This document shows positions 9,106 through 51,018 of a stretch of DNA of 64,000 nucleotides, in pieces. This stretch comes from Escherichia phage ECO4. The stretch is from sequence record NC_054911.1; one strand, given 5' to 3'. The notes under the pieces are model-generated. The model was not told the DNA's origin and made no database searches. It saw only the letters and a program-made list of their open reading frames with translations. A program made the position numbers and the translations under genes. Position 1 is the first letter of the stretch, and every line of letters begins with the position of its first letter.

Positions 9106-9435
9106 TCAATTAGAAAATAAATTTATCCAAGATTGTTCTTTAATTAAAAATGGCTCAGAATCGTATGCCATTAAACTTTGGGTGATTAGTCCTTTAAAAG
9201 GTCCATCAATAAATTCCATAGTAAAATATGGAATTTTATTCATTAATCTTGCATTAGGAGCAGTACACAAAACTCTGCATCCTTTGAATACGCCTTTTTG
9301 TAATTTGTATTGCTTGGGATAAAATTCGCTCAAAATGTTATTTTTTGCCAAAATTTCAAAATGATTCACCAATTTATTTTTAATAGTTTTTGGCGAAAAA
9401 TAAAGATATTCGAAAAGTTGCGTATCTGTCATCAT
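9106..9435 (-). CDS. hypothetical protein, 109 aa (track ORF trimmed to ATG)
   Basis: ATG at 9433-9435 overlaps the upstream stop (ATGA). Confidence 0.4.
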
Positions 9436-10019
9436 TGCATTCCGATTACGAAAAACTGTGGACGAGTAATACCACCAATGCAACATTTAATATTACAGCA
9501 GCAGTGTACAGTGTCAATATGGACACTATAAATCTTATCCATATCAGGAGATTTGACAGGCTCATCAATTATATACAAAATTCGCGAAAGCGATAAACCT
9601 CTGAACTTGCTTCCTTTATTACCAATAAAACTGCGCACAGAATCAGTAAATAAACGAAAACGTATATCATCATTAGAATAACGCGAAAATTCCTTTTTAA
9701 TATTATCTGCGGAAATTTTAGCGTAAGCTGAAGTATTAGAAAGAACAATAACTGTTCCGCCATCATACAGCCAATTAGCAGCAAAGTTAGTCACAGCAAT
9801 TGATTTGCCGGATTGACGTCCACCATCTATACGAAGTGTGCAGTACTGTTTAAGTAATTCTTCAAATGGCGGGATATAATCGTTTTTACAAATTTCTTCT
9901 ACTCTAGCATCAGAATGGTGTGTAAAAGCATTCATCAGGGATAGATAAGGACCAGTTAAAAATGTTCTCATTTTATTCTCTCTAGGTTTGGGCCATTCCG
10001 TGGCACATGAATTGTCCAT
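9432..10019 (-). CDS. P-loop NTPase with Walker A/B motifs and a cysteine-rich C-terminus, 195 aa
   Basis: Walker A GGRQSGKS, Walker B ILYIIDE, C-terminal HCCCNIKCC. Confidence 0.5.
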   Translation of the reverse strand: MDNSCATEWPKPRENKMRTFLTGPYLSLMNAFTHHSDARVEEICKNDYIPPFEELLKQYCTLRIDGGRQSGKSIAVTNFAANWLYDGGTVIVLSNTSAYAKISADNIKKEFSRYSNDDIRFRLFTDSVRSFIGNKGSKFRGLSLSRILYIIDEPVKSPDMDKIYSVHIDTVHCCCNIKCCIGGITRPQFFVIGMQ

Positions 10020-10124
10020 TTCTGTATTTACCCATTACCGCACTTGGGCTCGACCTTATTACAGGTTGGCGGGAATCCCTCATAGAATCATGAGGTCCAG
10101 CTTGTTCCCATATTTCTTATTTGC

Positions 10125-10598
10125 TTATTTAAATGATTTGACGTACTGAACAGAACCTTTACTATTCACGAAAGCGATTTTACCATTTTTATTATACATG
10201 GTAGCAGTACGCTGATAGCCATAAGTTTGCTTACCAGATTGATAACCAACTAATGCAAAATTATCTTCACCCATTTTATTCTGTTTAGCGCGAATGCGTT
10301 CATGACCATGTGCCATAAGAACCTTAGCATCACCCGTTGCAATGGATCTACGAGTTTTTTCATCTTCAACTGTATTAACAAAATCATCAAATGAATCAAA
10401 TTTAGCATGAGATTTATTATACAGTTTTCCATCTACTGCATAATTATATCCTTGCACATCCATCTCAACTTCTGTACCATCATCCAATACAGCAGTGATT
10501 TTCTGTCCTTTTTTAAATTTCAAAAGATCAGTAAAAGATTCAGCAATAATTTGAGAATTAATAGCTGCTTCAGTGATAAATTCTTGATATGTTTTCAT
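10125..10598 (-). CDS. internal-protein-like head protein with N-terminal capsid-targeting sequence, 157 aa
   Basis: N-terminus MKTYQEFITEAA closely matches the ipI N-terminus in this window (MKTYQEFTST). Confidence 0.6.
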   Translation of the reverse strand: MKTYQEFITEAAINSQIIAESFTDLLKFKKGQKITAVLDDGTEVEMDVQGYNYAVDGKLYNKSHAKFDSFDDFVNTVEDEKTRRSIATGDAKVLMAHGHERIRAKQNKMGEDNFALVGYQSGKQTYGYQRTATMYNKNGKIAFVNSKGSVQYVKSFK

Positions 10599-10607
10599 AT
10601 GTTTCCT

Positions 10608-11024
10608 TTAAATGTAAATATTTTTGCCGTAATACTTGTACCAGTGTGGCTTCATTAAAATTTTTTCATCGAGTCGTTGTTGACTCAATTTAATAGCTGA
10701 TTTGCATGGATTATAATCATTTTTCCATTCTGCTGGAATATCGCTGATGTCAGGAACTTCAGTATCTTTTATACTAAACCCGCGTTTTAAGCATTCCGTT
10801 ATAATGTCTGATTGACGCTTTCGCAAAAATTCTAACTTATCGTAAAAGAACGTAACATGACCAGAACCTAAAATAAACTCGGAAGATATTTTAAAATCTT
10901 TAACCCGCTTACCATTTGCCACATGTTTACGAACTATACCAAAAACACGTGGCAATTCACGGTATTCTGCGATTAAATGCTGATCAGCAAGTTCAGATAC
11001 TAAAGTCAAATTAATACGAGTCAT
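10608..11024 (-). CDS. denV: endonuclease V (pyrimidine-dimer DNA glycosylase)
   Basis: 138 aa; [17 protein letters not shown]... matches T4 DenV as recalled. Confidence 0.9.
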
Positions 11025-11049
11025 TTTATCCCTCCAAGTAACTGTGAAT

Positions 11050-11079
11050 ATACTATCACAGTTCTAGGAGAAAGTAAAC
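11050..11079 (-). promoter_or_regulatory. T4-type early promoter (-35 GTTTAC, 18-nt spacer, -10 TAGTAT)
   Basis: Read directly; upstream of denV. Confidence 0.55.
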
Positions 11080-11083
11080 AACT

Positions 11084-11614
<531 letters not shown>

Positions 11615-12070
11615 TTAAAAGAGGTTGTTCATTATTCGGTAAAGTGAAGGACCCATCACATATTGCCACTGAGTACGAGGAATAAGAGCAAAAGCGTCCA
11701 TCTCTGGAATCATAACACCATCTTTATTTTCAAAATAAGACTCACAATGGCAATTTCTAAACATCTCATGCTCTACTGGAATCGTATAATAAAATAACTG
11801 TAAGTCTTTATTACTAGAATATTTAAATACACCTAGGTCTTCTAGAAGGTCTGGATTATAATTGCTAAAACCGGTCTCTTCTAAGCATTCTCTTTTTGCA
11901 GCTTCCAGTGCATTCAAATCAGAACTTTCTACACGACCTTTTGGAATATCCCAACGATGTGCCATCATTCCAGGCTTACGAGAACCAGTAACCCGACCCA
12001 TAAATAAATCTTTATCTTCTGTCATGAAGATAATACCAGCTGATAATGTTTTCATTTTAATTTCCTGCAT
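11615..12070 (-). CDS. nudE: Nudix hydrolase
   Basis: 151 aa; Nudix box GRVESSDLNALEAAKRECLEETGF. Confidence 0.8.
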   Translation of the reverse strand: MQEIKMKTLSAGIIFMTEDKDLFMGRVTGSRKPGMMAHRWDIPKGRVESSDLNALEAAKRECLEETGFSNYNPDLLEDLGVFKYSSNKDLQLFYYTIPVEHEMFRNCHCESYFENKDGVMIPEMDAFALIPRTQWQYVMGPSLYRIMNNLF

Positions 12071-18696: not shown

Positions 18697-18981
18697 TTAC
18701 AAAAGATTTTTAGCAATAATTTTAAGCTGAGCTACTGAAATATGCTTGGCTTTAAACAAAGCAGTTTCTTCAGCAGGTGAGATAACGATTGTAGCACCAT
18801 CTTTCTTAGCGGACCATCCATCACCCAGGTAAACAGTACCTTTGACTTCTTCGCCATCAACCAGGCTAATCATCGGTTTACCTTCACGTCCTTTGTTTGC
18901 TTTAATAACTTCAGAAGTAAGGGTCGCTTCAGTCAAAGTAGAAGCGTTAGTCGTTGAAGTGAATTCTTGATAAGTTTTCAT
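18697..18981 (-). CDS. ipI: internal protein I (packaged head protein)
   Basis: 94 aa; capsid-targeting leader MKTYQEF; position between the tRNA array and 57B as in T4. Confidence 0.8.
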   Translation of the reverse strand: MKTYQEFTSTTNASTLTEATLTSEVIKANKGREGKPMISLVDGEEVKGTVYLGDGWSAKKDGATIVISPAEETALFKAKHISVAQLKIIAKNLL

Positions 18982-47531: not shown

Positions 47532-47956
47532 TGCTTCTGATCCCTGAAACTCATGAATTAGTTCTCGAGAATGTCGAAGCACTTATTCCTGAAGCACAGG
47601 GTCGCTTTGACGAATTGTCTTCTGCTTTAAATAAAGACGATATAAATACAATTGTCGAGAATATGCTTGATGATGAAACTGATTTAGCAGTTGCATTAGC
47701 TTCTATTAATGAAAATATGCCGTTAAATGAATTCATCGTTAAACATGTTTCTGCCCGTGGTGAAATTACTCGCACTAAAGATCGCAAAACCCGCGAACGA
47801 AATGCATTTCAAACCACCGGGCTGTCTAAAGCAAAACGTAGACAAATTGCTCGTAAAGCTACCAAAACGAAGATTGCCAATCCAGCAGGTCAATCTCGTG
47901 CTCAGCGTAAGCGTAAAAAAGCTCTTAAACGCCGTAAAGCATTAGGATTAAGCTAA
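47531..47956 (+). CDS. 68: gp68 prohead core protein
   Basis: 141 aa; basic C-terminus. Confidence 0.8.
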
Positions 47957-48594
47957 TGAATGAACCCCAATTACTAATTGAAACTTGGGGTCAACCTGGC
48001 GAAATTATTGATGGTGTGCCAATGCTTGAATCCCACGATGGAAAAGACCTAGGTTTAAAACCGGGTTTATACATCGAAGGAATATTCATGCAAGCGGAAG
48101 TCGTCAATAGAAATAAACGTCTTTATCCAAAACGCATATTAGAAAAAGCGGTAAAAGACTATATCAATGAGCAAGTTTTAACTAAACAAGCTCTCGGAGA
48201 ATTAAATCATCCTCCACGCGCTAATGTTGACCCGATGCAAGCCGCTATCATTATAGAAGATATGTGGTGGAAAGGAAATGACGTATACGGACGAGCTCGT
48301 GTTATTGAAGGTGACCATGGTCCTGGAGATAAATTAGCAGCTAATATTCGTGCCGGATGGATTCCAGGAGTTTCTTCTCGTGGATTAGGTTCATTGACTG
48401 ACACAAATAAAGGTTATCGTATCGTAAACGAAGGATTCAAATTAACTGTAGGTGTTGATGCAGTATGGGGTCCAAGTGCTCCAGATGCATGGGTAACTCC
48501 TAAGGAAATTACCGAATCACAGACGGCGGAAGCCGATACAAGTGCCGATGACGCCTATATGGCTCTCGCAGAGGCCATGAAAAAAGCGTTATAA
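47956..48594 (+). CDS. 21: prohead core protease
   Basis: 212 aa; position. Confidence 0.9.
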   Translation: MNEPQLLIETWGQPGEIIDGVPMLESHDGKDLGLKPGLYIEGIFMQAEVVNRNKRLYPKRILEKAVKDYINEQVLTKQALGELNHPPRANVDPMQAAIIIEDMWWKGNDVYGRARVIEGDHGPGDKLAANIRAGWIPGVSSRGLGSLTDTNKGYRIVNEGFKLTVGVDAVWGPSAPDAWVTPKEITESQTAEADTSADDAYMALAEAMKKAL

Positions 48595-48624: not shown

Positions 48625-49434
48625 ATGCTTAAAGAACAACTGATTGCCGAAGCGCAGAAAATTGATGCTTCCGTTGCTCTTGATAGTATTTTCGAATCAG
48701 TTAATATTTCTCCGGAAGCAAAAGAAACTTTCGGCACTGTATTCGAAGCTACCGTCAAGCAGCACGCCGTTAAATTAGCTGAATCTCATATCGCTAAAAT
48801 TGCTGAAAAAGCAGAAGAAGAAGTAGAAAAAAATAAAGAAGAAGCAGAAGAAAAAGCTGAGAAGAAAATCGCTGAGCAAGCTTCTAAATTCCTTGACCAT
48901 CTTGCAAAAGAATGGCTCACTGAAAATAAATTAGCAGTAGATAAAGGTATCAAAGCCGAACTGTTTGAATCCATGCTTGGTGGATTGAAAGAGCTCTTCG
49001 TTGAACACAACGTTGTTGTTCCAGAAGAATCAGTTGATGTTGTAGCTGAAATGGAAGAAGAGCTGCAAGAACATAAAGAAGAATCAGCTCGTCTGTTCGA
49101 AGAACTCAATAAGCGTGACGCATATATCAATTATGTGCAGCGTGAAGTGGCATTGAGCGAAAGTACTAAAGATCTGACTGAGTCTCAAAAAGAAAAAGTC
49201 TCTGCTCTGGTCGAAGGTATTGATTATTCAGATGCATTCTCAAGCAAATTGAGTGCCATCGTAGAAATGGTGAAGAAATCTAATAAAGATGAAAGCACTA
49301 TTACTGAGAGTATAAATACTCCTGATACTGAAGCAGCCGGACTGAATTTCGTCACTGAAGCTGTAGAAGATAAATCTGCACAAGGTGCAGAAGATATTGT
49401 AAGTGTATATGCGAAAGTCGCATCTCGTTTCTAA
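48625..49434 (+). CDS. 22: prohead core scaffold protein
   Basis: 269 aa; Glu/Lys-rich helical scaffold. Confidence 0.9.
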   Translation: MLKEQLIAEAQKIDASVALDSIFESVNISPEAKETFGTVFEATVKQHAVKLAESHIAKIAEKAEEEVEKNKEEAEEKAEKKIAEQASKFLDHLAKEWLTENKLAVDKGIKAELFESMLGGLKELFVEHNVVVPEESVDVVAEMEEELQEHKEESARLFEELNKRDAYINYVQREVALSESTKDLTESQKEKVSALVEGIDYSDAFSSKLSAIVEMVKKSNKDESTITESINTPDTEAAGLNFVTEAVEDKSAQGAEDIVSVYAKVASRF

Positions 49435-49452: not shown

Positions 49453-51018
49453 ATGACTATCAAAACTAAAGCTGAACTTTTGAACAAATGGAAGCCATTA
49501 CTGGAAGGTGAAGGTTTACCGGAAATTGCTAATAGCAAACAAGCGATTATCGCTAAAATCTTTGAAAACCAGGAAAAAGATTTCCAGACAGCTCCGGAAT
49601 ATAAAGACGAAAAAATTGCTCAGGCATTCGGTTCTTTCTTAACAGAAGCTGAAATTGGTGGTGACCACGGTTACAATGCTACCAACATCGCTGCAGGTCA
49701 GACTTCTGGCGCAGTAACTCAGATTGGCCCAGCTGTTATGGGTATGGTACGTCGTGCTATTCCTAACCTGATTGCTTTCGATATTTGTGGTGTTCAGCCA
49801 ATGAACAGCCCGACTGGCCAGGTATTCGCGCTGCGCGCAGTATATGGTAAAGATCCAATCGCTTCCGGCGCTAAAGAAGCATTCCACCCAATGTATGGTC
49901 CAGATGCAATGTTCTCTGGTCAGGGTGCTGCTAAGAAATTCCCAGCTCTGGCTGCTAGTACTGAAACTGTTGTAGGTGATATCTATACTCACTTCTTCCA
50001 GGAAACCGGTACTGTATATCTGCAAGCTTCAGCTGTTGTGACAATTGATTCTAGTGCAAATGATGCAGCTAAATTAGATGCTGAAATTAAGAAACAAATG
50101 GAAGCAGGTGTACTGGTAGAAATCGCTGAAGGTATGGCTACTTCTATCGCTGAACTCCAGGAAGGTTTTAACGGTTCTACCGATAACCCATGGAATGAAA
50201 TGGGCTTCCGTATCGATAAGCAAGTTATCGAAGCTAAATCTCGTCAGCTGAAAGCTGCTTACTCTATTGAATTAGCACAAGACCTCCGTGCTGTTCACGG
50301 TATGGATGCTGATGCTGAACTGTCTGGTATTCTGGCTACCGAAATCATGCTGGAAATCAACCGCGAAGTTGTTGATTGGATTAACTACTCAGCTCAGGTT
50401 GGTAAATCTGGTATGACCCTGACTCCAGGTTCTAAAGCTGGTGTATTTGACTTCCAGGATCCGATTGATATTCGTGGTGCTCGCTGGGCGGGTGAATCCT
50501 TTAAAGCTCTGTTGTTCCAGATTGACAAAGAAGCAGTTGAAATTGCTCGTCAGACCGGTCGTGGTGAAGGTAACTTCATTATCGCTTCCCGTAACGTAGT
50601 TAACGTTCTGGCTTCAGTTGATACCGGCATTTCTTATGCTGCACAGGGTCTGGCTACCGGCTTTAACACTGATACTACCAAGTCAGTATTTGCTGGTGTT
50701 CTGGGTGGTAAATACCGCGTATATATCGACCAGTATGCTAAACAAGATTATTTCACTGTAGGTTATAAAGGTCCGAACGAAATGGATGCTGGTATTTACT
50801 ATGCTCCATATGTAGCTCTGACTCCGCTGCGTGGTTCCGATCCGAAGAACTTCCAACCAGTAATGGGATTCAAAACTCGTTACGGTATCGGTATCAACCC
50901 ATTTGCAGAATCCGCTGCTCAGGCTCCGGCTTCTCGCATCCAGAGCGGTATGCCTTCTATCCTGAACAGCCTTGGTAAAAACGCTTACTTCCGCCGTGTA
51001 TATGTTAAAGGTATCTAA
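49453..51018 (+). CDS. 23: major capsid protein
   Basis: 521 aa; position; strongly biased codon usage. Confidence 0.95.
   Translation: MTIKTKAELLNKWKPLLEGEGLPEIANSKQAIIAKIFENQEKDFQTAPEYKDEKIAQAFGSFLTEAEIGGDHGYNATNIAAGQTSGAVTQIGPAVMGMVRRAIPNLIAFDICGVQPMNSPTGQVFALRAVYGKDPIASGAKEAFHPMYGPDAMFSGQGAAKKFPALAASTETVVGDIYTHFFQETGTVYLQASAVVTIDSSANDAAKLDAEIKKQMEAGVLVEIAEGMATSIAELQEGFNGSTDNPWNEMGFRIDKQVIEAKSRQLKAAYSIELAQDLRAVHGMDADAELSGILATEIMLEINREVVDWINYSAQVGKSGMTLTPGSKAGVFDFQDPIDIRGARWAGESFKALLFQIDKEAVEIARQTGRGEGNFIIASRNVVNVLASVDTGISYAAQGLATGFNTDTTKSVFAGVLGGKYRVYIDQYAKQDYFTVGYKGPNEMDAGIYYAPYVALTPLRGSDPKNFQPVMGFKTRYGIGINPFAESAAQAPASRIQSGMPSILNSLGKNAYFRRVYVKGI

Follow-up and report, generated by a model that had tools for sequence, protein, structure and literature searches.

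In T4 IPIII, residues 4 and 7 of the N-terminal leader serve capsid targeting and residues 8 and 10 serve processing, the protease gp21 cleaves after L/I-X-E, and the 10-residue leader is by itself enough for packaging, foreign proteins included (PMC9026906). IPIII without its capsid-targeting sequence (CTS) is active from the cytoplasm (PMC9391042). Three internal proteins each inhibit one GmrSD enzyme with strict specificity, Ip1 that of E. coli CT596, Ip2 that of ECOR21 and Ip3 the two-gene form of ECOR17, and the authors of that study proposed that all proteins of both Ip loci target GmrSD variants (PMC12373910). The genes ip4-10 gave no reproducible inhibition of a panel of GmrSD variants (Silas et al. 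2025, PMC12373910, Supplementary Fig. 9); from the shared nomenclature we assume that the 'ip4' of that panel is the Ip4 analysed here. A further leader-bearing protein, Bas37_0260, blocks McrBC (bioRxiv 10.1101/2025.11.20.689424, HIDEN-SEQ preprint).

The window, the whole 64-kb stretch of DNA that was analysed, carries an internal-protein gene between denV and vs.8. Judged by its sequence, this gene is ip4, already named, and neither the gene nor its arrangement is new. Its product resembles T4 IPII and IPIII in its N-terminal capsid-targeting leader with an L/I-X-E site, in its basic character and in its place within the e-vs.8 interval, and the leader and ribosome-binding-site DNA of the T4 genes is near-identical to that of ip4. 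It differs from them in that the bodies are unrelated and the T4 genes lie upstream of denV, whereas ip4 lies downstream; a known target (GmrSD-ECOR21 and GmrSD-ECOR17, respectively) also sets IPII and IPIII apart from Ip4. T4 IPI (IPI*), the inhibitor of GmrSD of E. coli CT596, is a leader-bearing injected protein, as Ip4 probably is, but is encoded at a locus near 57B and has an unrelated body with a fold that does not match the Ip4 model. Bas37_0260 is likened to Ip4 by class and not by sequence: it is of the Ip class, has only its N-terminal signal in common with IPI-III and inhibits a Type IV enzyme, but is encoded at the ipI locus. The Ip4/ipIV proteins of K3, T2, RB32, RB51 and PST are the same protein with the same leader, at 98-99% aa identity.

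Identity and distribution of the gene

The coding sequence and its start signal lie on the strand opposite to that given, directly behind denV:

10125..10598, minus strand: ip4 (Ip4/ipIV) coding sequence, an ATG-started ORF of 157 codons plus stop
10604-10608, minus strand: Shine-Dalgarno sequence AAGGA, 5 nt 5' of the ip4 ATG, by direct reading of the sequence
10608..11024, minus strand: denV (endonuclease V), divergent allele (Pyr_excise; PHROG 1183, E 1.5e-62)

The ORF list and the sequence give a 157-aa product that opens MKTYQEFITEAAINSQIIAESF. By ORF coordinates 9 nt lie between the denV stop codon and the ip4 start, and direct reading shows that the ip4 Shine-Dalgarno sequence shares bases with the denV stop codon. 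The gene differs from its counterparts in T2, RB51 and phiD1 at 18-22 nucleotides, of which 1-2 alter an amino acid. Since the codon differences from these three phages comprise 17-20 synonymous and 1-2 non-synonymous changes, ip4 is a real gene under strong purifying selection.

The assignment as ip4 follows from two profile matches and from near-identity to the proteins of K3, T2, RB32, RB51 and PST. Pfam DUF7412 matches Ip4 over its full length (E 1.1e-95, 318.5 bits against a cut-off of 27), with residues 1-157 aligned on profile positions 1-158, and PHROG 3155, 'internal virion protein', matches residues 1-157 of 157 (E 1.1e-101). By tblastn the window protein is 99.4% identical in amino acids to T2 ipIV, RB32 Ip4 and Yersinia phage PST ipIV and 98.7% identical to RB51 Ip4, the RB51 record carrying the note 'similar to T2, RB70 Ip4' on the gene; the substitutions number only 1-2 (V150I, and T76A against RB51). 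In a structural search of viral models, K3 Ip4 (UniProt Q38388) was the sole significant match, at 98% identity. The preliminary description of this locus had seen in the gene a possible new determinant, a view that gives way to its identity with the named Ip4/ipIV at 98-99% aa. The name ip4 reportedly dates from the 1990s, the original description being presumed to be that of Repoila et al. 1994. A search for 'Ip4' or 'ipIV' in the main text of T-even papers found neither name in the searchable literature.

Homologues of Ip4 are carried by 469 of the 50,697 phage records searched by tblastn, compared with 261 records for IPIII and 198 for IPII. Most of these records (305 of the 469) are of Escherichia type at 95% aa identity or more, T2, RB32, RB51 and PST among them; about 160 more, at 60-80% aa, are from T4-like Klebsiella, Salmonella and Raoultella phages. 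Identity across other genera is 67-71% aa, and a protein-database search yielded a homologue in Serratia phage SP1 at 61%. Among the records sampled, Ip4 occurs together with IPII or IPIII in Klebsiella and Raoultella phages only. Among 1.84 billion representative proteins, a search by profile returned eight remote homologues at E<=1e-3, all of them phage Ip4-like proteins or fragments, and the contig of a distant homologue that was recovered is 2.8 kb long with uninformative neighbours.

Some ip4 copies in the databases look damaged or chimeric. The copy of Klebsiella phage vB_Kpn_AM_K5 has a divergent C-terminal end, a truncated 39-aa product stops matching after residue 30, and a 100-aa protein holds only the last 35 Ip4 residues, joined to an unrelated N-terminus.

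Relation to IPI, IPII and IPIII

Two ORFs only in the window start with MKTYQEF, ip4 and a 94-aa ORF:

18697..18981, minus strand: IPI orthologue, 94 aa (PHROG 4363; 90.5% aa identity to T4 IPI, 100% to phiD1)

In a five-sequence BLASTP comparison the leader-less body of Ip4 had no significant similarity to IPI, IPII or IPIII, the best values being E 0.48 for IPII and E 87 for IPIII. With the leaders kept, tblastn alignments of Ip4 with IPII and IPIII are confined to the N-terminus. The preliminary description was right in this respect, having reported a 157-aa protein with the ipI-type leader on an unrelated body. The window also lacks homologues of IPII and IPIII elsewhere, where T4 IPII and IPIII find leaders only by tblastn; its internal-protein content is IPI and Ip4, without IPII and without IPIII. 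Orthology of the ORF to IPII or IPIII is ruled out by the body-only BLASTP and the leader-only tblastn matches. Such orthology had been named beforehand as the result that would count against the description; its equivalent was found in clear orthology to the named Ip4, which close relatives carry at this position.

Locus organisation

The window has the order e-denV-ip4-vs.8, with e at 11084..11578 and a vs.8-like gene downstream of ip4, whereas T4 has e-ipIII-ipII-denV-vs.8; the difference from T4 noted in the preliminary description is thus real. Between flanks about 95% identical to T4 by blastn (9300-10113, up to the T4 denV stop, and 11035-11800, the e region), the ipIII-ipII-denV block of T4 is replaced by a divergent denV and ip4. 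This denV is 78% identical to T4 EndoV in amino acids and 77% in nucleotides, inside the flanks of about 95%, and seems to have been exchanged together with ip4 as one segment.

The arrangement had suggested a rearrangement or replacement. It is the usual one: the RB51 annotation likewise reads e-denV-Ip4-vs.8, phiD1 shares this order with its ip4 equivalent annotated just as internal virion protein, and at least 80% of the 2.3-kb stretch is present in 313 phage records. Klebsiella phage Roth04 has e, ip4, an unannotated CDS coinciding with an IPIII tblastn hit, and vs.8. In Salmonella phage STML-198 the gene between ip4 and vs.8 is annotated as an internal head protein of 88 aa, and in both phages ip4 comes directly after e. 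T2 reads e-ipIV and is missing precisely the denV segment, window 10614-11034 (T2 NC_054931.1, blastn). The position of the window gene, after e with or without denV and before vs.8, matches that in RB51, phiD1, T2, Roth04 and STML-198. In T6 (MH550421.1) e abuts regB, the whole denV/ip/vs.3-vs.8 block being absent, and there is no ip gene at the locus; the T6 ipI locus carries Ip5 and Ip6. In the comparison with T4, T2 and T6 proposed in the preliminary description, the window differs from T4 and from T6, which has no ip gene there, and T2 has ipIV but lacks denV. The lack of denV fits the classical UV sensitivity of T2. Because T4-like flanks enclose exchanged ip/denV content, the e-to-vs.8 interval is by synteny and blastn a cassette locus, of which the window has the commonest cassette.

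The leader region itself is conserved at the DNA level. Positions 10567-10625, which cover the ip4 leader and 27 nt upstream, are 95% identical to the T4 ipII counterpart by blastn, and 10567-10613 are 94% identical to the ipIII counterpart. This shared leader and ribosome-binding-site DNA is likely a recombination patch.

Other features of the region deserve mention. In the window the N-terminal extension annotated for the 219-aa T4 Vs.8 protein is interrupted (9432-10083, minus strand), with a 33-aa ORF at 9982-10083 near-identical to T4 Vs.8 residues 1-33 and a 195-aa ORF at 9432-10019; the aligned stretch measures 814 nt in the window and 822 nt in T4. In RB51 and phiD1, vs.8 is annotated at 179-180 aa with the start MRTFLTG (window 9432-9971), and the T4 extension is probably not genuine coding sequence. 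Vs.8 has weak P-loop/terminase-like matches (phrog_2, E 5e-6; AAA_14, E 0.011) and is wrongly annotated as 'terminase large subunit' in some records. The spacer of about 140 nt between ip4 and vs.8 (9972-10124) has a GC content of 45% against about 33%, is also conserved in T4 and includes a hairpin of 7 bp, GACCUCAUGAUUCUAUGAGG. An RNA element in this spacer was considered and rejected, there being no Rfam match and a folding z-score of -0.05 against shuffles. The window is part of a Tequatrovirus genome, and over its first 25 kb (1-25000) the nearest relatives in the phage collection are ECML-363, JY01 and BECP11, at only about 96% identity.

Leader and processing sites

The 157 residues divide into a leader, a linker and a body, and the window also encodes the protease, the scaffold and the capsid protein of the head:

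10569..10598, minus strand: capsid-targeting sequence MKTYQEFITE, codons 1-10, ending in I-T-E10 (sequence and family conservation)
10539..10568, minus strand: linker AAINSQIIAE, codons 11-20, ending in the protease-type site I-A-E20 (alignment and model disorder)
10128..10538, minus strand: predicted mature Ip4 body, residues 21-157, 15.5 kDa, pI 9.3
47956..48594, plus strand: gene 21 prohead protease, which would act in trans on the Ip4 leader (Pfam Peptidase_S77, E 1.5e-111)
48625-49434: gp22 scaffold gene, adjoining gene 21
49453-51018: gp23 major capsid protein gene, near gene 21 and gp22

The leader reads MKTYQEFITE where the T4 internal proteins have MKTYQEFIAE. An alignment of 14 sequences shows M1, K2, F7, E10 and E20 to be invariant in the Ip4 family, with Y or F at residue 4, I, L or M at residue 8, and I, L or M in every member three positions before E20 (P3). 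Ip4 thus has the 10-residue capsid-targeting leader with its key residues 4 and 7, and it has two gp21-type motifs, I8-T9-E10 and I18-A19-E20, in a genome with a Peptidase_S77 gene. All three distant homologues at 34-36% identity keep a leader-like N-terminus, in two of them MNF(E/K)(Q/D)FLNES, and two of the three keep the E20-type site as LNE-S. Since proteins so diverged still carry such an N-terminus, leader and body have evidently been linked over a long time.

Processing of IPI goes past residue 10 and yields IPI*. The second conserved protease-type site is a feature of Ip4 and is likened here to that processing. From the motifs, gp21 would cleave the Ip4 leader after Glu10 and probably also after Glu20, and the predicted mature protein is basic (pI 9.3, 22 K+R), as are IPII (pI 9.6) and IPIII (pI 9.7). 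By its leader, its protease-type sites and its location in a known ip hot-spot, Ip4 is a member of the internal-protein class, as had been proposed; its packaging into the head and delivery into the host along with the DNA are probable. A search of the literature for virion proteomics or injection data on Ip4 returned none among searchable papers.

Expression

The pattern TATAAATA of the T4 late promoter occurs 24 times over the whole window, against about 10 expected, and two of these copies lie just upstream of e:

11592-11599 and 11605-11612, minus strand: two tandem T4 late-promoter boxes TATAAATA, found by pattern search

These boxes at 11592-11612, 13 nt apart, are the nearest and the sole perfect late promoters upstream of ip4 on the minus strand; the pattern search found no perfect TATAAATA between e and ip4. 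A search for terminator-like sites on the minus strand between the e late promoters and ip4 likewise found none. Late read-through from the e promoters into ip4, and so co-transcription with e, is plausible on this arrangement of signals.

Predicted structure

An AlphaFold2 model of Ip4 was built with a 15-sequence alignment and predicts a confident mixed alpha/beta fold (mean pLDDT 84.4, pTM 0.77), with values of 80-94 in the body and about 50 or less in the leader. In the better model pLDDT is below 50 at residues 12-18, and in the first model at residues 10-18; low values at 12-18 are as would be expected for a propeptide. Foldseek found no match to the fold in the PDB (best E 0.23). A sequence search of the PDB with Ip4 gave nothing meaningful, its top match being an artificial protein (E 6e-4) with no passing stretch. 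There is no conserved catalytic motif, H64, H97 and H99 being lost in distant homologues. As the fold is unmatched, the structure gives no hint of function.

Discussion

We regard ip4 as an alternative T-even internal-protein gene and think it fairly probable that its product is packaged, processed and injected to act against a defence that meets the incoming DNA. The anti-defence role is the most likely one by analogy. Four leader-bearing internal proteins have known targets and all four block Type IV enzymes, a class of restriction enzyme directed against modified T-even DNA; this is why we favour an injected, target-specific defence inhibitor.

The course of events can be pictured in five steps: (i) Ip4 would be made late, probably on transcripts that run from the two e late promoters through e and denV; (ii) the sequence MKTYQEFITE would direct it into the prohead scaffolding core; (iii) gp21 would remove the leader after Glu10 and probably cut after Glu20, leaving a basic protein of about 15.5 kDa in the head; (iv) mature Ip4 would be ejected into the cell along with the DNA; (v) there it would most likely bind a single specific defence protein of the host and block it, so shielding the glucosyl-hydroxymethylcytosine DNA as it enters. 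Our best guess for the target is a modification-dependent restriction enzyme of Type IV, the class blocked by Ip1, Ip2, Ip3 and Bas37_0260. Several results stand against this picture. The published panel of GmrSD variants showed no reproducible inhibition by ip4-10, and the search of the accessible literature for Ip4 in virion proteomics or injection studies came back empty. For a protein in an arms race Ip4 varies unusually little (95-100% aa identity across the 305 Escherichia-type records, 67-71% in other genera), no perfect late promoter lies directly before its gene, and its fold is unmatched.

Ip4 could instead be mainly a structural or charge-neutralising component of the head, with a part in assembling the core or in condensing and ejecting the DNA but without a specific target in the host. 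No other internal protein at the locus is as widely carried, Ip4 is under strong purifying selection across genera, and the mature protein would share the basic character of IPII and IPIII. Internal proteins touch DNA phosphates through their lysines (PMC3012670), and IPIII mutants show aberrations of head assembly (PMC9026906). Nevertheless, basic IPII and IPIII proved to be specific GmrSD inhibitors, and since T4, without ip4 at the locus, and T6, without any ip gene there, are both viable, Ip4 is dispensable for head structure. We consider a mainly structural role unlikely, while allowing it a real chance.

Ip4 might also be injected as an effector with a target other than a Type IV enzyme, whether another early defence or a function of host take-over, as with the injected Alt enzyme. 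The failure of ip4-10 to affect the tested GmrSD variants reproducibly is in keeping with this, as is a confident yet unmatched fold, and conservation in phages of Klebsiella, Salmonella, Serratia and Raoultella would fit a target common to many Enterobacteriaceae. The GmrSD tests, however, covered a small part of Type IV diversity, all four leader-bearing internal proteins with known targets (4/4) inhibit Type IV enzymes, and conserved catalytic residues are lacking, since H64, H97 and H99 are lost in the distant homologues. A target of this other kind seems to us improbable.

That the leader is no more than a recombination scar, which ip4 has in common with ipII and ipIII, on an ordinary cytoplasmic early protein that is never packaged, would agree with the 94-95% identity to T4 of the leader and the 27 nt upstream beside an unrelated body and with the want of a perfect late promoter immediately upstream, but is very unlikely because the leader is conserved: its targeting and cleavage residues are kept family-wide (F7 and E10 invariant), it is diverged but recognisable in homologues at 34-36% identity, and the first 10 residues alone package foreign proteins (PMC9026906).

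We return, then, to Ip4 as an injected defence inhibitor. More specifically, we give about an even chance to its being an inhibitor of a host defence not yet named, either another Type IV subtype or an early-acting system found across the Enterobacteriaceae. Gene, name, leader and position have all been recorded before, in T2, K3, RB32 and RB51 as in hundreds of other genomes, and the question of function is general to Ip4 rather than specific to the window. If Ip4 is such an inhibitor, its confident, unmatched fold would be a new inhibitor architecture. Because Ip1-3 and Bas37_0260 set host range and Ip4 outnumbers IPII and IPIII, its target would explain part of the difference in host range between T2-type and T4-type phages and may be useful in the choice of therapeutic phages.
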